Below, piece by piece: positions 2,312 through 14,747 of a DNA stretch of 15,908 bases (its first letter is position 1; each line of letters opens with the position of its first letter). The notes below the pieces were generated by a model. The model was not told the origin of the DNA. It ran no database searches and saw nothing but the letters and a program-made list of their open reading frames with translations. A program made the position numbers and the translations under genes. The stretch is from a virus. The DNA lies in the UHGV virus genome UHGV-0361135; one strand, given 5' to 3'.

Positions 2312-2481
2312 ATGTCATGCAAGTGCATGAAAACCACTACATAAAGCGGGCAGGCGTGGCGGGGATACGAGCGCGCGCTCATGGTTGAATTAATGAAATT
2401 ATGGTGTTAAATAGGCTAGCTTTTTAAGTCGTGAATATTCAATTTTTCAACTCATTTTTTTCATAGGGAGGAGTAATTGAC

Positions 2482-3180
2482 ATGGTTATGTTAGTGGATG
2501 ACTGTCCACGATGTGGATCACAAAAAATAGCGTTTGATGTTAATGGGCTGAATTGCACTAGGGTTTACAATGCATTGGGCGGGGGTAAAACATACGAGTA
2601 CGAGGTCTATTGTGTTTGCCGAGAGTGTCATAAAACGACAATGTTTCTTTGCAGACCTTTAACGAAAAATAAAACTTTAGATGGCTATAATTGGGAAAGT
2701 GGAATATTCGGCTTAAAGGAAGTTGCAGAGGTTGTTAGGCCTATATCACCGGCAGACTTAGCAGTAGAGGAGCCACCAGAGTTCTTACCTGAGCATATCA
2801 ATAGTGCATATGAGGAAGGGGCGAAATGTTTGGCTATAGGTTGTTATAATGCAGCAGCAACCATGTTTAGGCTTTGCCTTGATTATGCCACAAAAGGACT
2901 TCTTCCTGATGGGGAGCAAGGGCCTGCGCAAAAAATAAGGAGAAGCCTAGGGTTAAGAATGGAGTGGTTATTTGATAATCATCTACTGCCTGAAGCTTTA
3001 AGGGAACTAGCTGAATGCGTTAAAGATGACGGAAATGATGGAGCGCATGAAGGTATTTTGGATAAAGCTGCTGCTGAGGATCTTGAAGATTTTACCTATC
3101 TTTTTTTAGAACGGCTTTACACTGAACCTCAACGCCTTATCGAAGCCAAGACAAGGCGTGAACAAAGAAGAAACAAATAA
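2482..3180 (+). CDS. Zinc-ribbon plus DUF4145-like domain protein (232 aa); candidate single-gene defence or abortive-infection protein in cargo island 1
   Basis: GGGAGGAG RBS at 2466-2473, 8 nt before the ATG at 2482. The N-terminus has CxxC...CxxC (CPRCG...CRECH). The C-terminal region (AYEEGAKCLAIGCYNAAATMFRLCLDYATK...LRELAECVKDDGNDGAHEG) resembles the DUF4145 helical domain pattern as I recall it. Lower GC than the adjacent portal gene. Confidence 0.75.
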   Translation: MVMLVDDCPRCGSQKIAFDVNGLNCTRVYNALGGGKTYEYEVYCVCRECHKTTMFLCRPLTKNKTLDGYNWESGIFGLKEVAEVVRPISPADLAVEEPPEFLPEHINSAYEEGAKCLAIGCYNAAATMFRLCLDYATKGLLPDGEQGPAQKIRRSLGLRMEWLFDNHLLPEALRELAECVKDDGNDGAHEGILDKAAAEDLEDFTYLFLERLYTEPQRLIEAKTRREQRRNK

Positions 3181-3188
3181 GTTCGGAA

Positions 3189-4226
3189 TTATTCTTCTGA
3201 AAGAATATAGGGCGTAAATTTAATCACTTCTTCGCCCAGCCAGTCGTTCAGCTCTTGTAGCCTTTTTTGCAAGGGCGTTAATTCATTACGTACAAATACG
3301 CGACTGGCCTTCTCCACATCCCCAAATCCCCCAACATTATTAGGCATTATCCCCATCATTTGTGGCGGTACACGGTGCGCAGCCATCATGTCATCGCGGC
3401 TGACATTTTTGATATTCAGAAACTCATCCTTCGCCGCGACTTCTGACAGAGGAATGATCTGAAGGCCGTCCTTTTTGCCGTTCGGCGAGTACATAAACAG
3501 GTTACGGAAATTGCCAGGTCCTTTGGCGCTTTTCATCGCATTACGGAGGTTGTTTACATCCTCCTGGTTCTGCGCGGCGTCGGTCATGTACATGATGAAG
3601 CCTGCGTGGCTGCCGTTAATGTAATACTTGCGGCGGAACAGCGTGGCGGACTCGTTGAGTAGGGCTGACGGAATGGCAGAAAGATAACCGGGCAGGCCGT
3701 AGATCTCCTGGTTGATATCCGGTTCCATCAGGTGAAAAATGCTGCCTTTCGTGAACTGATACGGTTGCGTGGTCATGCCGTATTGCACAAACCAGTAGGT
3801 ATCCAGGTCTAATCCGCGTCGGGTGTATTTTGCCAGGGCAGGTTCAAGGGCGATAACTTCACCGAAGCGGTTCGTGCGTTTCTCCAGGTAGGCGTTACCA
3901 AAAACCAGATAGTCCTGCACAAAACGCGAAAAAGCCTGCTGGCTGAGCAGCGGGTGAGGGATGTAGGTGCTGGTCAGAATGTTGCACTTTACTGCAATCG
4001 GGGAACTATGATGCACGGCAGCGCGGAAGGTGCGCGCCAGTCCGTCAAAGCTGACGGGCGGCTCATACCAGCGGTCCATCTGTACGCATTCCACATAATC
4101 CAGCAGTTCTCGGCGGTCCAGAACAGGAACGGGATCGCCGAAGCTGAATGCTTCGGCTGTAGTTTGACTTTTAAGCTGGATCTGTTTCGTCGCCGCAGCG
4201 CGGTTCTTCTTACTCTTTCCCATCAA
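3189..4226 (-). CDS. Q: Capsid portal protein (P2 gpQ homolog)
   Basis: 345-aa ORF with a P2 Q-like N-terminus (MMGKSKKNRAAATKQ...), located immediately downstream of P on the minus strand with a 4-nt ATGA start/stop overlap. Canonical P2 Q-P arrangement. Confidence 0.92.
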   Translation of the reverse strand: MMGKSKKNRAAATKQIQLKSQTTAEAFSFGDPVPVLDRRELLDYVECVQMDRWYEPPVSFDGLARTFRAAVHHSSPIAVKCNILTSTYIPHPLLSQQAFSRFVQDYLVFGNAYLEKRTNRFGEVIALEPALAKYTRRGLDLDTYWFVQYGMTTQPYQFTKGSIFHLMEPDINQEIYGLPGYLSAIPSALLNESATLFRRKYYINGSHAGFIMYMTDAAQNQEDVNNLRNAMKSAKGPGNFRNLFMYSPNGKKDGLQIIPLSEVAAKDEFLNIKNVSRDDMMAAHRVPPQMMGIMPNNVGGFGDVEKASRVFVRNELTPLQKRLQELNDWLGEEVIKFTPYILSEE

Positions 4227-5989
4227 AAAATCTCCACAATATTGCTGGTATTGGCGGATTCGCCCTGCAGCGGTTCGTTAAACAGTGCGTGCATTGTTGC
4301 CCAGGCCAGATCGGCATGGCTGGCTTCTTCGCTGCGGCTGGCTTCATAGGTTGGGCGGTTGCCGCTGGCGGTGGTGGCGCGACGGATTGCCATAAATGAC
4401 TGCGCTATGTCGGTGTGTCCGGCGTCAAACTCCAGACGACGGTGACTGATAATGTCGTAGGCCTTGAGTACCAGGGCGTTTTTAACGTTGGGGTTGTAGA
4501 CAAACTCCCGGACGGCTGGAAAAAACGCTTTCACGTTCTCGTAAACCCCGTGGCCGACACCTGTCGAGTCGATGCCGATGTAGGTCACGTTGTACTGTTC
4601 GGTCAGTTTTTTGATGGCGTCAGCCTGGGCGCGAAAGTCCATTCCGCGCCACTGGTGACGCTCAAGAATGCGGAACTTGCCGCCCGGCACGGCTGGCGGT
4701 GCCACCACCACGCATCCGGCGCTGTCGCCATTCTGCGTACCTTTCGCCGGGTCATAACCGATCCATACTTCGCACCAGCCAAACGGGCGCAGGGCCAGTG
4801 CATGAAAGTCAGTCCAGACTTCCCAGCTGTCTACCATGCACGCCTGCAGCTCGCTGAGCGGGAACACGGACGCGAGATCGTCCACGAACTCACACATCAG
4901 CAGGTTCTGGTATTCGTCCGGGCTGTACTCCATGCGCAACTGGTCGAGATCGAACAGGTTACATCCGCCGCGCACAGCATCTTCCACGGTGACTATCTGG
5001 CGGTATTGCCCGTCTGCGCACAGCAGGCCGGGGGCCAGATTGCTGTGGGACAGGTCGATGTCCACCTTATCGGCTTTGTTGCGCCCACGGTTGAACAGCG
5101 CACCGGACCAGAACGGATAAGCACTGTGTGTCAGGCTGGATGGCGTGGAAAAATAGGTTTGTCGCCATTTTTTGTGAATAGCCATACCGGAAGCCACTTT
5201 GCGCAGCTCCTGGAATTTCGGTATCCAGAAATATTCATCCAGATACAGGTTGCCGTGGTAACTCTGGGCCGTGCGGGCATTGGTGCCGAGGAAGTAAAGC
5301 GTGGCCCCGTTGGGAAGCACCATCGGATCGCCTTTCAGCTCCACCTCCACTTCTTTGGCGAAGTCGATGATGTACTGTTTAAAGACGTGGGCCTGTGCCT
5401 TACTGGCAGAAAGGAAAATCTGGTTACGTCCGGTAAGCAGGGCGTCAATCAGGGCTTCACGGGCAAAATAGAAGGTCGCGCCGATCTGGCGTGACTTCAG
5501 CAGGTTGCGGATGCGGTTGGTTTTTCCGGCTTCCCACCAGTGGCGCTGGTAGTTGAACATGGAGGAATGGAAAATTTCTTCCAGCTTCTCAATCTGTTCA
5601 TCGGTGAAAACATTCTTTTCAGGCTGACGGCGTGGGCCTTTGTTGCGGTTGGCGACGTTAGGGTTTAAGTCAGCTTCGTTGCCGCCATTGTTAAACTTGC
5701 CGATCCGCGCGTGGCGCTCCGACTGGCGCGCCAGCAGGTCAATCTCTTTGAAATCTTTCCCTTCTTTGTGCTCCTTCATGATGAGCTGGCAGTAGCGTGC
5801 GGCGGTAGTGAGCTGCATCTGATCCAGCGGCCCATAGTCACCCCACTTGTCGCGTTTTTTCCAGCTGTGAACGGTTGCAACTTTCTCGCCCAGCATTTCA
5901 GCAATGCGGGCTACGCGGTATCCCTGAAAGTACAGCAGCATGGCCTGCCGACGGGGATCGAGATCTGCGGGTGTCAGTGTGGTGTTCAT
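4223..5989 (-). CDS. P: Terminase large (ATPase) subunit (P2 gpP homolog)
   Basis: 588-aa ORF, matching the size and position of P2 gpP. It is divergent from O across a 142-bp late-promoter region. Confidence 0.92.
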   Translation of the reverse strand: MNTTLTPADLDPRRQAMLLYFQGYRVARIAEMLGEKVATVHSWKKRDKWGDYGPLDQMQLTTAARYCQLIMKEHKEGKDFKEIDLLARQSERHARIGKFNNGGNEADLNPNVANRNKGPRRQPEKNVFTDEQIEKLEEIFHSSMFNYQRHWWEAGKTNRIRNLLKSRQIGATFYFAREALIDALLTGRNQIFLSASKAQAHVFKQYIIDFAKEVEVELKGDPMVLPNGATLYFLGTNARTAQSYHGNLYLDEYFWIPKFQELRKVASGMAIHKKWRQTYFSTPSSLTHSAYPFWSGALFNRGRNKADKVDIDLSHSNLAPGLLCADGQYRQIVTVEDAVRGGCNLFDLDQLRMEYSPDEYQNLLMCEFVDDLASVFPLSELQACMVDSWEVWTDFHALALRPFGWCEVWIGYDPAKGTQNGDSAGCVVVAPPAVPGGKFRILERHQWRGMDFRAQADAIKKLTEQYNVTYIGIDSTGVGHGVYENVKAFFPAVREFVYNPNVKNALVLKAYDIISHRRLEFDAGHTDIAQSFMAIRRATTASGNRPTYEASRSEEASHADLAWATMHALFNEPLQGESANTSNIVEIF

Positions 5990-6035
5990 GGCACAAACCT
6001 ACAACCTTGAATGAAGGCTTTCCCCGCCTGCGGTT

Positions 6036-6053
6036 TGTGTGGTTGTCGGTACA
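6036..6053. promoter_or_regulatory. TGT-N12-ACA dyad, candidate Ogr/B-family late-activator binding site of the P/O divergent late promoter region
   Basis: TGT at 6036-6038, 12-nt spacer, ACA at 6051-6053. The centre is about 88 bp upstream of the O start codon, consistent with the P2 late-promoter rule of a dyad centred near -55. Confidence 0.55.
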
Positions 6054-11103: not shown

Positions 11104-11500
11104 TAAAGCAGTGCCTTATGTCCGTAATAACCCGGACAAACTGCATCTGTTTGTGGATAACGGTTCGCTGGTTGCCACGGGGGCCAGCTCCATGTCATGG
11201 GAGTACCGCTACACCCTGAACGTGGTGATAGAGGATTTCAGTGGTGACCAGAATCTGTTGATGGCCCCGGTTTTGCTGTGGCTGCGTGATAACCAGCCCG
11301 ATGCCATCAATAATCCCGCTTTACGGGAAAAGTTATTCACCTTTGAGGTGGATATTCTGCGCAACGATGTCTGTGATATCAGCCTTAACCTGCAACTGAC
11401 GGAACGTGTGCTGGTCAGCACTGACGGCACAGTGTCCAGCGTTGAAGCTGTAGCGGAACCCGATGAACCTGAAGAAATGTGGACGGTGAAACGTGGCTGA
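11069..11500 (+). CDS. R: Tail completion protein (P2 gpR homolog)
   Basis: GTG start at 11069 with an AGGAG RBS at 11057-11061. KPQSLRHALNKAVPYVRNNPDKLHLFVDNGS...RYTLNVV..DF.GD...L...VL.WLR.NQPD matches P2 gpR. Confidence 0.9.
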   Translation: MNKPQSLRHALNKAVPYVRNNPDKLHLFVDNGSLVATGASSMSWEYRYTLNVVIEDFSGDQNLLMAPVLLWLRDNQPDAINNPALREKLFTFEVDILRNDVCDISLNLQLTERVLVSTDGTVSSVEAVAEPDEPEEMWTVKRG

Positions 11501-11939
11501 ATTGCAGAAGGTGGACGACTGGCTGAGTGCCTTGCTGGCGAATCTGGAGCCAGCCGCAAGAAGCCGTATGATGCGCCAACTGGCGCAGGAACTTCGCCGG
11601 ACACAGCAGCAGAATATCAGGATGCAGCGCAACCCTGACGGCAGCAGCTATGAACCGCGACGGGTAACAGCACGCAGTAAAAAAGGCCGCATTAAACGTC
11701 AGATGTTTGCGAAGCTGCGCACCACAAAATACCTGAAAACTGCCGCCAGCGCCGATTCTGCCAGCGTGCAGTTTGAAGGCAAGGTGCAGCGCATTGCCCG
11801 CGTTCATCACTACGGCCTGCGTGATCGCGTCAGTCGCAAAGGACCTGAGGTCCGTTACGCAGAGCGTAAGCTATTGGGTATCCACGATAAAGAATATTAT
11901 CAAATCAAGGATACCCTATTTGAATGGTTATCTAAATAA
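11493..11939 (+). CDS. S: Tail completion protein (P2 gpS homolog); the 3' end is AT-rich and may have been remodelled by the adjacent insertion
   Basis: GTG start at 11493 overlapping the R stop. 148 aa in the expected position after R. Codon composition of the last ~20 codons shifts to AT-rich. Confidence 0.85.
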   Translation: MAELQKVDDWLSALLANLEPAARSRMMRQLAQELRRTQQQNIRMQRNPDGSSYEPRRVTARSKKGRIKRQMFAKLRTTKYLKTAASADSASVQFEGKVQRIARVHHYGLRDRVSRKGPEVRYAERKLLGIHDKEYYQIKDTLFEWLSK

Positions 11940-11942
11940 TAT

Positions 11943-11963
11943 AAAAATACATCTGTATTTTTT
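11943..11963. terminator. Weak AT-rich hairpin flanked by an A-run and a T-run between the convergent genes S and the TOPRIM-like gene; possible bidirectional terminator
   Basis: aaaaatacatctgtattttttc: ATACA/TGTAT-type dyad with an A-tract 5' and a T-tract 3'. It sits in the 25-bp gap between the two convergent stop codons. Confidence 0.35.
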
Positions 11964-11964
11964 C

Positions 11965-12816
11965 TTATTTCATTTCGTGTGGCATATTTATGGCTTTAAT
12001 TTTTTCGTGGTAATGATTAAACTCAATATGAGTATTGGTAAAATTGGATTCAAATGTATTCATTAAATTGGAATATAATGATTCATATGATAAGGATACT
12101 TTTTTTCCATTTTTTTCTGCAGTTGTGCTAATGTACCTATGTACTGCAGAAAAAAGAAAATGACCTCTAAGCCACTTTCTGTATTCTATCGATTTTGATT
12201 TGAAAGATGAATCGATGTTATCTGGTTCCACACCTAATTTTTCAATGATGGTGTTTTTGTAACTCGTGATTTTTTGCTCGCAAATTTCATTTGATTTTCT
12301 AGATTTCATGAAACGATCTGCACTGTCACCAATAACTGAAATGCCTTTTCTATAAATATGATTGTATATATCAAGTTTTATTAGGGGTTCCATTTTGGTA
12401 TAAAAGTCTTCTGTCCAAGAATCGACGTTGACATCGTTCATTATCTTTTGAGGTAATTTTCCGAGAGTTTTTATTGCCTTATATATGCCTGTTTTGTCAA
12501 TAAACGTGTTTTCGATGGAGTGCCCATAAGTTTTTACAATGCGACTATCAGCGTTTTCCTCATTTTCAAATGTAGTGAAGTCTGCATCACATGCAATTAT
12601 AATTTGAAGATCTTCATCAGTAACTCTATCAATATATTTTTTTAATTCTTCACAGCCGCCAACATCTTTGATTTCAACCTTTAATGAACTAGCTTTATTA
12701 AAGATGATTTCCCAAAAGCAAATATCATCTGGGCCTTCAACATAAACCATGGCTTCAGCTTGGTAAAATAAATTCATTACATTTTCTGCTTCGGCAGAAT
12801 AATGGAAATCATCCAT
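11965..12816 (-). CDS. OLD-family TOPRIM-like nuclease candidate (DUF4435-like; AriB-like or AbiLii-like), second gene of the island-2 defence operon
   Basis: Start chosen at ATG 12816 (MDDFHYS...), which has a GGAGA RBS 9 nt upstream and an 8-nt overlap with the upstream ATPase gene. The track start at 12900 has no RBS. The N-terminal VYVEGPDD (Glu at about residue 27) and the later IIACDADF (DxD) fit a TOPRIM catalytic E...DxD arrangement. Strongly AT-rich. Confidence 0.75.
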   Translation of the reverse strand: MDDFHYSAEAENVMNLFYQAEAMVYVEGPDDICFWEIIFNKASSLKVEIKDVGGCEELKKYIDRVTDEDLQIIIACDADFTTFENEENADSRIVKTYGHSIENTFIDKTGIYKAIKTLGKLPQKIMNDVNVDSWTEDFYTKMEPLIKLDIYNHIYRKGISVIGDSADRFMKSRKSNEICEQKITSYKNTIIEKLGVEPDNIDSSFKSKSIEYRKWLRGHFLFSAVHRYISTTAEKNGKKVSLSYESLYSNLMNTFESNFTNTHIEFNHYHEKIKAINMPHEMK

Positions 12817-14068
12817 GAACCAATTTCTCCATATCAAAGATTGCATTTCGATATTTAGAAGCCACTTCTGGTGAATGCGTAGCGGCGATAATTTGCGCAT
12901 TAGGATTAAGTTGTTTGATTGCAGGTATTATTTTTCGTTGCCATGCAATATGTAGCGATAATTCTGGTTCATCAGTAAGATAGATGAAAGGTTTGTTTTG
13001 CTGTAGCAAAGTTTCAATAAAAAGAATTAATAGCTGTTTTTCACCAGACGATAAATTACTATGGCTAATCGGCCCATGCTCGTTTTCTATTACTAGCTCA
13101 CCGGAGATAAAATTAAATTTTTTATCGGTTATGAACTCATGTAATGTTTCTAAAAATAGATTTATAGGAAGAAATATGTTTTTTATTTTCTCCTCGGATT
13201 TTAAAGACATCTTTATAATTCTTTGCGTCTTTCGTAATGCCTCAAATGATCTGTAATCTACATTTAAAATATTTCTGTTATTTTTTTCTGCAAGTCGTAA
13301 TTCTTCAAATGTTTTGGCAATAGATTCAACGTGAAAGTTAATCTTCTTTCTGACATCACTATCAAAAGCTCCAAGCTGAGAATATGCAGCTATTAAATTT
13401 CTACGTTCTTTTTCTTTATCAAAAGAAAAGTTAAATGTGTCATCGATACCATCTTCTTTACTATAAAGAATAGAAGCAAGAACCTCTTTCTGTAATATTG
13501 CAGAAACATCACGAGCTCTTTGTGATAAATAAAGTTGATATTTTGTTAGATTCTGCAATAATTGTTCTAATCGGTAATCAACAGGGTTGATTAATTTTGA
13601 GCCATATTTGTCTCTGATTTCAAAATCTTCACCGCTTCTAAGTCGGTAAACTGATAGAGAAGATAAAGCAACTAATTTATCTAACTCTAACTTAAGTTTT
13701 TCAACGTCTTCCTGATATTTTCTCCTCATATATATAGGTAGTCTACGATCTTCAAAGGATCTGATAATATATTTCTTTCTAGAAATTGTATATTCAAACG
13801 TAGGCAAAGCTTTAGTTATGTCAAATTTACTCACAACTTTTATTGTTTTAGTTTTGCTTCCTTCTTTTATTTTTATTGTTACATTATCAAAACTATTCTC
13901 ATTTAGTGATTCGAGTTCTAATGCCAGAACTGAGTGAAGAATATTCATAAAGGTTGTTTTACCGGTCCCATTTCGACCAATAATAATATTTACATCTTCA
14001 TTAAATGAACATGATGCATTTAGTCTTCCCCAAAAACCTTCAATCTTGACACTAGATAATCTAAACAT
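12809..14068 (-). CDS. ABC/AAA_21-type ATPase (419 aa; AriA-like or AbiLi-like, OLD-family ATPase-like), first gene of the island-2 defence operon
   Basis: AAGGA RBS 5 nt before the ATG at 14068. Walker A GRNGTGKTT near the N-terminus, ABC signature-like LSSGEKQLL, Walker B IYLTDEPELSLH and H-loop AATHSP near the C-terminus. Strongly AT-rich relative to the flanking phage genes. Confidence 0.85.
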   Translation of the reverse strand: MFRLSSVKIEGFWGRLNASCSFNEDVNIIIGRNGTGKTTFMNILHSVLALELESLNENSFDNVTIKIKEGSKTKTIKVVSKFDITKALPTFEYTISRKKYIIRSFEDRRLPIYMRRKYQEDVEKLKLELDKLVALSSLSVYRLRSGEDFEIRDKYGSKLINPVDYRLEQLLQNLTKYQLYLSQRARDVSAILQKEVLASILYSKEDGIDDTFNFSFDKEKERRNLIAAYSQLGAFDSDVRKKINFHVESIAKTFEELRLAEKNNRNILNVDYRSFEALRKTQRIIKMSLKSEEKIKNIFLPINLFLETLHEFITDKKFNFISGELVIENEHGPISHSNLSSGEKQLLILFIETLLQQNKPFIYLTDEPELSLHIAWQRKIIPAIKQLNPNAQIIAATHSPEVASKYRNAIFDMEKLVHG

Positions 14069-14104
14069 AGGAATCCTTTATTTAGTCCATGAGTAAATGC
14101 ACTT

Positions 14105-14122
14105 TGTATCATAACTGGCACA
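14105..14122. promoter_or_regulatory. TGT-N12-ACA dyad in the AT-rich intergenic region upstream of V; candidate late-activator site (P_V-like), with spacing to the V start shorter than expected
   Basis: TGT at 14105-14107, 12-nt spacer atcataactggc, ACA at 14120-14122. The centre is only about 55 bp from the V ATG at 14169, so either the leader is very short or the site is fortuitous. Confidence 0.35.
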
Positions 14123-14168
14123 AAACTAAAGAGTTTTTTTATCAATCTTATCTCGGCATGATTAAATT

Positions 14169-14747
14169 ATGAACGCACAATTAACCGAAATCATGCGCCT
14201 TATCACCAACCTGATCCGCACTGGTGTAGTCACCGAAGTGGACCGGGAACACTGGCTTTGTCGGGTGAAAACGGGCGACCTTGAAACCAACTGGATTAAC
14301 TGGCTGACGCTGCGCGCGGGTAATGCCCGCACATGGTGGCGACCATCGGAAGGTGAGCAGGTGGTGCTGCTGAGTCTGGGCGGCAATCTGGAAACCGCCT
14401 TTGCGCTGCCCGCTGTCTATTCGAATCAGTTCGCACCACCGTCAGCGTCGGTGGACGCCTGTGTGACAGAACATCCTGACGGTGGCTGGTTTGAATACGA
14501 ACCCGCTACCGGGCGCTGGTATGTCAGGGGAATCAAATCCATGGTCATTGAAGCTGCCGACAACATCACCCTGAAAACCAGTGAGTTTGTACTGGAGGCT
14601 GACCGCACACGCATTAACAGCGAAGTAGTGATCAATGGTGGTGTTACCCAGGGCGGCGGTGCAATGAGTTCTAACGGAATTGTGGTTGATGCACATCAGC
14701 ATACTGGCGTCCTGAAAGGCGGCGACACAACCGGAGGCCCGGTATGA
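14169..14747 (+). CDS. V: Baseplate assembly / spike protein (P2 gpV homolog)
   Basis: 192 aa; MN....E..R.I.N.IRTG...E.D.....CRV.TG.....W..WLT.RAG..RTWW.PS.GEQV.....GG.L.TAF.LP..YS matches P2 gpV. Confidence 0.92.
   Translation: MNAQLTEIMRLITNLIRTGVVTEVDREHWLCRVKTGDLETNWINWLTLRAGNARTWWRPSEGEQVVLLSLGGNLETAFALPAVYSNQFAPPSASVDACVTEHPDGGWFEYEPATGRWYVRGIKSMVIEAADNITLKTSEFVLEADRTRINSEVVINGGVTQGGGAMSSNGIVVDAHQHTGVLKGGDTTGGPV

Follow-up and report, generated by a model that had tools for sequence, protein, structure and literature searches.

The 15,908-nucleotide stretch of UHGV virus genome UHGV-0361135 analysed here (hereafter, the window) contains an AT-rich cassette of approximately 2.2 kb, located between the phage genes S and V. 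The GC content is 0.30-0.34 in the cassette (about 11800 to 14200), versus 0.52-0.59 in the flanks, and the two open reading frames (ORFs) found in it, ariA and ariB, are both encoded by the minus strand, antisense to the late tail genes S and V. The remainder of the window corresponds to a late region of P2 type, including portal Q, terminase P, O, N, M, L, X, holin, lysozyme, LysA/B/C and R. The GC drop, the ORFs and the Pfam matches of S and V agree with a preliminary description of the region, which had placed an antisense two-gene cassette of this size and composition between the two tail genes. The cassette is very probably a two-gene PARIS system (class 4 of the OLD family), hosted as a moron in the S-V, or orf30, variable locus of a P2-like prophage.

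Two adjacent genes with the sequence motifs and folds of PARIS

The product of ariA is an ABC/SMC-type ATPase. All the ATPase motifs listed in the preliminary description are present in its 419-aa translation, GRNGTGKTT at residues 31-39 (Walker A, including K37), LSSGEKQLL at 339-347 (signature), LTDEPE at 364-369 (Walker B, including D366-E367) and ATHSP at 396-400 (H-loop, including H398). No variation is seen among 48 homologues at K37, the signature motif LSSGEKQ, D366-E367 and H398. Matches to the Pfam families AAA_21 (82.3 bits), AAA_15 (64.6 bits) and SMC_N (51.9 bits) were scored. Among PADLOC models, AriA scores best (5.7e-40) and numerous PtuA models come after it; in NCBIfam, the matches retrieved (PtuA, MADS3 and ABC) are all below threshold. 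The best sequence match in PDB (6e-17) is AriA of Escherichia coli B185 (8ux9_B). The B185 PARIS, which resides in a hotspot of a P4-like satellite, is the studied system of the family (PDB 8UX9 and 8V45-8V49; Rousset 2022, Burman 2024, Deep 2024, Belukhina 2025). An AlphaFold2 model of the ATPase, built on the 48 homologues, has a predicted local distance difference test score (pLDDT) of 81. The top 14 matches found in PDB with this model by Foldseek are all AriA chains (8V46, 8V45, 8V49 and 8UX9), with E-values of about 1e-18 and a template modelling (TM) score of about 0.6, a moderate value obtained with a predicted model. Retron and PtuA ATPases come next at about 1e-12, followed by SMC and Rad50 heads.

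AriB belongs to the Pfam family DUF4435 (91.3 bits over residues 23-238). PADLOC models of AriB are matched at 2.3e-24 and 1.5e-9, and the only other matches at E <= 1 are to AriAB and, marginally, to mad4 (0.034); NCBIfam has no model for the 283-aa protein. The AlphaFold2 model (pLDDT 93) retrieves AriB at ranks 1 and 2 of the Foldseek search of PDB (8ux9_A and 8v46_D), with a probability of 1.0, a moderate TM score of 0.54 and 16% identity. C-terminal regions of OLD proteins are next best, and the match to GajA is weak (E 0.19). Across 50 homologues, residues E27, D31, D77, D79, E102 and G218-H219-F220 do not vary, and R217 is nearly invariant. The TOPRIM-like E...DxD arrangement noticed in the preliminary description is seen in E27 and D77-A-D79. 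In an hhalign comparison of the family profile with a 308-aa AriB of the B185 type, E27, D31, D77, D79 and E102 are paired with E26, D30, D88, E90 and E122, and R217-G-H with R236-G-H. The acidic residues of B185 AriB form a two-metal site, the changes E26A and E90A abolish defence, and R236 has been modelled as contacting the D-loop of tRNA (Burman 2024).

The two genes overlap by 8 nt. The 3' end of ariA reads GTT CAT GGA TGA, and the ATG of ariB, at 12816, lies inside ATGGATGA. The overlap implies that the translation of ariA and ariB is coupled. The same overlap and gene order are found in homologue pairs of Cronobacter, Yersinia and Shewanella, and are thus conserved from E. coli to Shewanella. 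A longer ariB, of 311 aa, could be read from an ATG at 12900. This reading was rejected, since RefSeq calls an 852-nt gene in identical loci, and the closer homologues start with MDDF, MDEF or MADL at the same overlap.

PARIS systems have been detected by searching for adjacent genes matching either AAA_15 (at least 32 bits) or AAA_21 (at least 27 bits) and DUF4435 (at least 27 bits) (Rousset 2022; PMC9122126). The scores of the cassette proteins exceed these values with room to spare, and the genes are adjacent on one strand, in an arrangement conserved in homologues. The ATPase motifs (K39 and E393 are required in B185) and the two-metal acidic site of the TOPRIM domain are both present, and the folds of AriA and AriB are matched ahead of those of OLD, PtuA and SMC. 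A split ATPase plus DUF4435/TOPRIM pair with the organisation of PARIS had been proposed in the preliminary description, along with profile searches and structure prediction as means of checking it. Pfam, PADLOC, the published rule, PDB folds and the mapping of catalytic residues all support the proposal: both proteins match the profiles significantly, and the best folds of the single chains are AriA and AriB. Standard defence-finding rules would already flag the cassette. One more prophage-borne PARIS, already callable by a published Pfam-based rule, matters little by itself, and the main point of interest is its location.

Other defence systems combine an ATPase of the ABC type with a nuclease of the TOPRIM type. 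P2 Old (class 1), which is encoded by P2 in a variable locus, and GajA (class 2) are single fused polypeptides, whereas ATPase and TOPRIM are separate proteins here. The difference from the fused P2 Old, remarked on from the start, holds: there are two separate ORFs, and OLD-like_TOPRIM is matched at E 0.15 and 13 bits, against a cut-off of 23.2 bits, so that Old and class 1 were discarded. Gabija was discarded as well, since GajA needs the helicase GajB, and no helicase ORF occurs in or beside the cassette. AbiL of Lactococcus (AbiLi/AbiLii) resembles the cassette in that an ABC ATPase is split from a second protein of TOPRIM type, and has been grouped with PARIS by Burman 2024. Yet the sequences of AbiLii and AriB are not similar, and the two superimpose poorly (PMC13064643). 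No AbiL model is among the PADLOC matches of the 283-aa protein at E <= 1, the presence of an AbiLii model in the library being unconfirmed. The alternative label of AbiL-like, used in the preliminary description, should therefore be dropped, as the partner protein matches DUF4435/AriB.

The ATPase domain is shared by many systems, and, with E-values of 1e-18 to 1e-23, the ATPase of the cassette also matches models of PtuA, MADS3 and retron ATPases. An AbiL-type or other ATPase-nuclease system (Gabija, Septu/PtuAB, MADS) could have been mislabelled as PARIS because of this domain. The partner protein, however, is a DUF4435/AriB protein with an AriB as best fold, and matches no AbiL, PtuB (HNH) or GajB model, mad4 being only marginal; in addition, neither helicase nor HNH genes are adjacent, nor is there an AbiLii-like gene. 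Septu, AbiL and Gabija were rejected on the basis of this partner, and mislabelling is highly improbable.

Homologues of both proteins are numerous. At a cut-off of E <= 1e-30, an exhaustive AriB profile search retrieved 315 cluster representatives; the number rises to 863 at E <= 1e-10, with lengths of 247-307 aa among the 150 listed. Relatives of the ATPase exceed 3700 at E <= 1e-10, and AriA proteins of the clade are 411-436 aa long. Both families are present in PHROGs, where they are labelled as 'unknown function'. Selection was analysed on alleles from Cronobacter, three E. coli strains, Yersinia, Shewanella and Pasteurella, and both ORFs are intact in all of them. Non-synonymous divergence (dN) is 0.15-0.61 for AriA and 0.26-0.80 for AriB, and synonymous sites are saturated (synonymous divergence, dS, above 2 or undefined). 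Where computable, dN/dS is 0.04-0.07 for AriA and, on saturated dS, 0.15-0.35 for AriB; non-synonymous changes accumulate in the clade 1.6-1.8 times faster in AriB than in AriA. The existence of hundreds of intact homologues, and a dN far below dS, argue that the ORFs of the cassette are more than chance. By these comparisons, ariA and ariB are functional genes, and are kept under strong purifying selection.

Relation to the PARIS of E. coli B185

The cassette and the B185 PARIS are both two-gene operons, in which the ATPase comes first and the DUF4435/TOPRIM nuclease second, and the ABC motifs, the five acidic residues and the RGH residues can be aligned. Both are carried by a mobile element of the P2/P4 family, in a small variable locus. 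The location differs, being the S-V junction of a helper-type phage in one case, and the psu-int locus of a satellite for the B185 type in the other. AriB is 283 aa long here, versus about 306-308 aa in the B185 system. The B185-type AriB used for comparison was taken from a PARIS locus (L020) found between psu and int in a P4-like satellite. In this locus, which belongs to an E. coli genome, B185-type PARIS spans 3126-4519 and 4516-5442; the 308-aa ariB is intact, while ariA was called as three fragments of 205, 77 and 172 aa, and is thus probably disrupted. An hmmscan search with the B185-type AriB yields no match to Pfam DUF4435 at E <= 1. As AriB of the window scores 91 bits, the latter is the more typical DUF4435 member.

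Several observations weigh against placing the cassette beside B185 PARIS. Identity to the B185 AriA and AriB proteins is only 16-21%. Sequence searches of PDB with either the single AriB or the 50-sequence profile found no AriB structure. Because these searches failed, the link to characterised AriB proteins needed Pfam and PADLOC profiles, fold comparison and hhalign, and the hhalign probability to the B185-type AriB is only 63% (E 7e-5, 196 columns). AriA is 419 aa long, versus 464 aa in B185. The preliminary description had judged the ATPase short for an AriA, and perhaps a divergent subtype. The protein is indeed shorter, and its clade divergent, but the difference amounts to only 45 aa, and the length is normal for the clade. 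In B185 AriB, R28 and R31 form salt bridges to AriA, and K60 and K64 clamp the anticodon loop; P29, I32, E57 and Y61 are found here at the corresponding positions. The promoter of ariAB was not recognised either, as a sigma-70 consensus scan of the minus strand in the interval 14069-14168 detected no site. The scan retrieved overall 7 sites versus 11.6 in shuffled sequence, and is for this reason uninformative in AT-rich DNA; the promoter must lie in 14069-14104, or overlap the PV region at 14105-14168. A Shine-Dalgarno sequence, AAGGA, is located 5 nt upstream of the start codon of ariA. Finally, the other PARIS tested, from E. coli O42, is silent from its native promoter.

Because the contact and clamp residues of B185 are not kept at the equivalent positions, the interface may differ, and so may target and trigger. 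Three basic residues of the window AriB (K59, K60 and R64) lie on the same helix as the clamp positions of B185. In AriA, a basic patch (R115-R116-K117) is aligned, with low alignment confidence, to the pore arginine R116 of B185, which is needed for binding of Ocr. PARIS systems have been subdivided into 11 clades; AriA co-evolves with AriB in these clades, and pore residues are poorly conserved, a pattern read as reflecting different triggers (Burman 2024). The pair described here fits as one such clade, and a well populated one. The clade is distant from the only PARIS to have been studied both structurally and biochemically, and has kept the catalytic core, but differs at the residues contacting AriA and clamping the anticodon. 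This makes it a natural comparator for trigger and tRNA specificity.

Family and general mode of action are, with considerable confidence, those of the B185 PARIS; confidence in the specifics is lower, and we infer complex, trigger, tRNA target and defence phenotype by analogy. Within a lysogen, transcription of ariA and ariB would run antisense to the late genes, and the two products would be made by coupled translation. Oligomers of AriA would keep the AriB nuclease in an inactive state. The complex formed in B185 is an AriA hexamer which sequesters AriB (A6B3). A protein of a superinfecting phage may then bind AriA in an ATP-dependent manner, and cause the release of AriB; in B185 the part of the trigger is played by a DNA mimic with anti-restriction activity, such as T7 Ocr. 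Once freed, AriB would form dimers that cleave the anticodon region of host tRNAs. Translation would stop, and the infection abort, and as a result the lysogen population would be protected, and competitors of the prophage excluded. The coupled gene order, with the ATPase first, fits an excess of the neutralising partner.

It is conceivable, if doubtful, that the pair shares its ATPase-TOPRIM superfamily with B185 PARIS, yet operates by a different mechanism. The trigger may be a phage protein other than Ocr, or a host-integrity signal as for P2 Old, and the nuclease may cut other tRNAs, or other RNA or DNA. PARIS would then be a family label, and this possibility is compatible with the assignment made above. 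The low identity to B185, the lack of positional conservation of K60, K64, R28 and R31, the poorly conserved pore residues of the 11 clades (Burman 2024) and the faster evolution of AriB are in line with a different mechanism, as is the finding that the two PARIS systems tested differ in defence profile. Yet the catalytic core and the RGH residues are conserved, the folds of the whole chains are those of AriA and AriB rather than OLD or GajA, and the coupled, antitoxin-first gene order is shared with B185.

The same gene order, together with the overlap, would also suit an excess of antitoxin, and B185 PARIS acts as a type II toxin-antitoxin pair in which AriB is toxic and AriA neutralises it. 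The main role of the cassette might accordingly be that of an addiction module, stabilising the prophage or the cargo segment. This is improbable: deletion of ariA or ariB in B185 is non-toxic, chromosomal prophages gain little from addiction, the clade is also found in small islets which are not prophages, and defence against phages is a property of every family member tested.

The S-V junction as a variable locus

The late genes of P2 are transcribed in units, PO driving O-N-M-L-K-R-S, and PV driving V-W-J-I-H-G, and TGT-N12-ACA is the consensus of the four Ogr-dependent late promoters (PMC3931495). A TTGT-N12-ACAA dyad is invariant in six of six loci carrying different cargo or no cargo, with its centre 55.5 bp upstream of the ATG of V, while the surrounding sequence varies. 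Further matches to TGT-N12-ACA at 5978-5995 and 6036-6053, in the P-O intergenic region, are as expected for PP and PO. The number of matches in the window is not significant (5 found versus 3.7 expected), and the weight of the PV dyad comes from its conserved position, not from the pattern count. The dyads of P2 late promoters are centred near -55. If this applies here, the 55.5-bp spacing leaves almost no leader for V. The PO operon ends with S, and the PV operon begins with V. As the two genes belong to different late units, the cassette fills the gap between operons and splits none of them, with the PV dyad kept upstream of V. The notion, put forward in the preliminary description, of a contiguous late tail operon interrupted by the insertion has thus to be abandoned.

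The borders of the variable segment are sharp (Table 1). DNA alignments lose identity in five phages at a left breakpoint near 11880, inside gene S. The last 63 nt of the gene are 29% GC, versus 57% in the rest, and this tail differs with every cargo type. The S sequence following LLG is 17-38% GC in nearly all cargo-bearing loci (L003, L004, L006, L007, L017-L019, L025 and L026); the corresponding values are about 52-56% for RE2010 and the empty site. The AT-rich and cargo-specific nature of the S tail places the border of the hotspot inside a structural gene, each cassette supplying its own S C-terminus. At the right border, the cargo ends before the conserved dyad. Folding of the hairpin found between the convergent stops of S and ariB yields -4.1 kcal/mol on the plus strand (z -2.9) and -6.5 kcal/mol on the minus strand (z -3.9), and the sequence looks like a weak bidirectional terminator. 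A scan for GC-rich terminators revealed none at gene ends, and missed this hairpin, which was found by folding. No tRNA or Rfam matches were obtained in the window. Direct or inverted flanking repeats, possible traces of transposition or site-specific insertion, were sought, and only short, chance-level matches were found. Cargo exchange is better explained, in the simplest account, by recombination between P2-like phages within the conserved body of S and PV/V.

Table 1. Features of the S-V cassette and its borders in the window, and other cargo found at S-V junctions
Feature	Sequence	Position	Strand	Evidence or remarks
Gene S, conserved body (tail completion / virion morphogenesis)	window	11493..11880	+	Pfam Phage_tail_S 140.5 bits; annotation of identical loci
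Gene S, AT-rich, cargo-linked 3' end (last ~19 codons, after conserved LLG)	window	11881..11939	+	left recombination border of variable segment
AT-rich 8-bp hairpin between S stop and ariB stop, T-runs on either side	window	11943..11962	.	RNA folding
ariB	window	11965..12816	-	283 aa, DUF4435/TOPRIM
ariA stop/ariB start overlap, 8 nt, ATGGATGA	window	12809..12816	-	read off the sequence
ariA	window	12809..14068	-	419 aa, ABC/SMC-type ATPase
ariA leader, Shine-Dalgarno AAGGA at 14078-14074	window	14069..14104	-	sequence
TGT-N12-ACA dyad, Ogr-type activator site of late promoter PV (V-W-J)	window	14105..14122	+	pattern match and conserved position; phage element, not cargo
Gene V (baseplate spike)	window	14169..14747	+	Pfam Phage_base_V 65.4 bits and Apex motif; annotation
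176-aa ORF	Cartapus S-V junction			
phrog_4373 protein, 283-288 aa	RE2010 and strain YZLc4-1	L006 1040-1891; L019 4039-4905	-	
Sll1717-type P-loop ATPase, 503 aa	ATCC 8739, Klebsiella Kp4865-2	L017 3371-4882	+	
127-aa protein and PcfJ-domain protein	STEC309	L018 3354-4926	+	
DUF6216	E. coli B derivatives (B/BL21-type)	L027 689-1495	-	
IS1 and hypothetical protein	strain 61 S-V junction			

Three regions of P2-like phages are described as variable in the literature: orf30, which is located between S and V, the TO region, hosting old/tin, and Z/fun. The cassette resembles P2 orf30 in position and AT-richness, and the gene content of the site varies between P2-like phages; yet P2 orf30 itself, an ORF of 261 bp, has no known function, whereas a 2.2-kb recognisable defence operon is found here. 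The preliminary description had identified the junction as the orf30 cargo site, and had suggested a search for alternative cargo in P2-like prophages. Such a comparison bears the suggestion out, revealing both empty sites and at least six cargo types besides PARIS (Table 1). The empty site, a 68-bp gap, is found in the closest phages, Escherichia phage 500465-1 and Klebsiella 4LV2017, and about half of 60 E. coli loci of the same S/V lineage, taken as a spread sample, are empty. None of the alternative cargos matches the PADLOC 2023 models.

PARIS of this clade has repeatedly taken up residence at this locus, and the clade is rare in E. coli. Copies with 99.8-99.9% identity to the cassette are present in 18 of 5426 complete E. 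coli genomes, and also in the predicted prophage record vB_EcoM-813R9. The cassette lies between S and V in both identical loci with annotation which were examined (vB_EcoM-813R9 and strain EC11). Alleles with 72% and approximately 65% nucleotide identity are found in 13 more E. coli genomes, bringing the clade to 31 of 5426. The six related E. coli loci inspected all adjoin V, in antisense orientation, in P2-like prophages, and the Cronobacter allele is similarly placed. Alleles of Shewanella and Pasteurella reside in small chromosomal islets, and the contexts of the homologues are altogether mobile or defence-like. In Yersinia enterocolitica (L010-L012, 4752-6837; 64% identity in AriA, 44% in AriB) the allele adjoins the CI repressor of a P2/186-like prophage, and deaminase-like and DUF6911 genes are found nearby. 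A similar cI-adjacent hotspot has been described in Vibrio K139-like phages (Rousset 2022; PMC9122126). The vB_EcoM-813R9 record (ON470620.1, L001) is the only 'phage' record containing the cassette, and is a predicted prophage. Its interval 18763-23914 carries the host genes ybjT, ybjS, amiD-like and artP directly after the tail-fibre gene H, and the record hence represents a truncated prophage with host flank, not a virion genome.

The window thus contains a member of a PARIS clade that is uncharacterised, at a variable locus which is known but has been mined little. In the sources consulted, the systematic analysis of P2-like hotspots by Rousset 2022 covered only the gpA-gpQ locus (PMC9122126). 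The defence cargo of P2-like phages is not confined to that site, as the S-V inter-operon gap also swaps cassettes. At least four PARIS alleles, with AriB identities of 44-100%, have been found at the S-V site, and may reflect a long-term residence of the clade. A broader scenario may be tentatively envisaged, in which S-V is a third defence hotspot of P2-like phages, not yet mined systematically, the PARIS clade is a long-term resident of it with triggers and targets of its own, and the other cargos are new anti-phage systems; that all these parts hold together is doubtful. The phrog_4373 protein, DUF6216, the Sll1717-type ATPase and the 127-aa plus PcfJ-domain pair could each be such systems. 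Most of the other S-V cargo is uncharacterised, and represents a lead. The locus itself, with its sharp borders, is the most useful one, since the border inside S and the PV dyad provide anchors for systematic mining.

Other candidate cargo in the window

Two further ORFs are found in the TO-region hotspot, on the minus strand, at 1436-1966 (176 aa) and 2028-2246 (72 aa), in DNA of 40-44% GC. Neither has a Pfam or PADLOC match, and both are labelled 'hypothetical' in related E. coli prophages. The gpA-gpQ (old/tin) hotspot contains, at 2482-3180 on the plus strand and directly upstream of the portal gene Q, a gene for a 232-aa DUF4145 protein. The protein matches Pfam DUF4145 at 30 bits and phrog_1305 at 180 bits, and more weakly the PADLOC model PD-T7-4 (1.2e-6). 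None of the complete E. coli genomes contains the left part of the window in full. Possible cargo at both loci, PARIS at S-V and DUF4145 near Q, may bear on how P2-like prophages shape the immunity of their hosts. The interval 2384-3188 is missing from the best E. coli matches to that part of the window, suggesting that the prophage may carry a second, rarer cargo gene.

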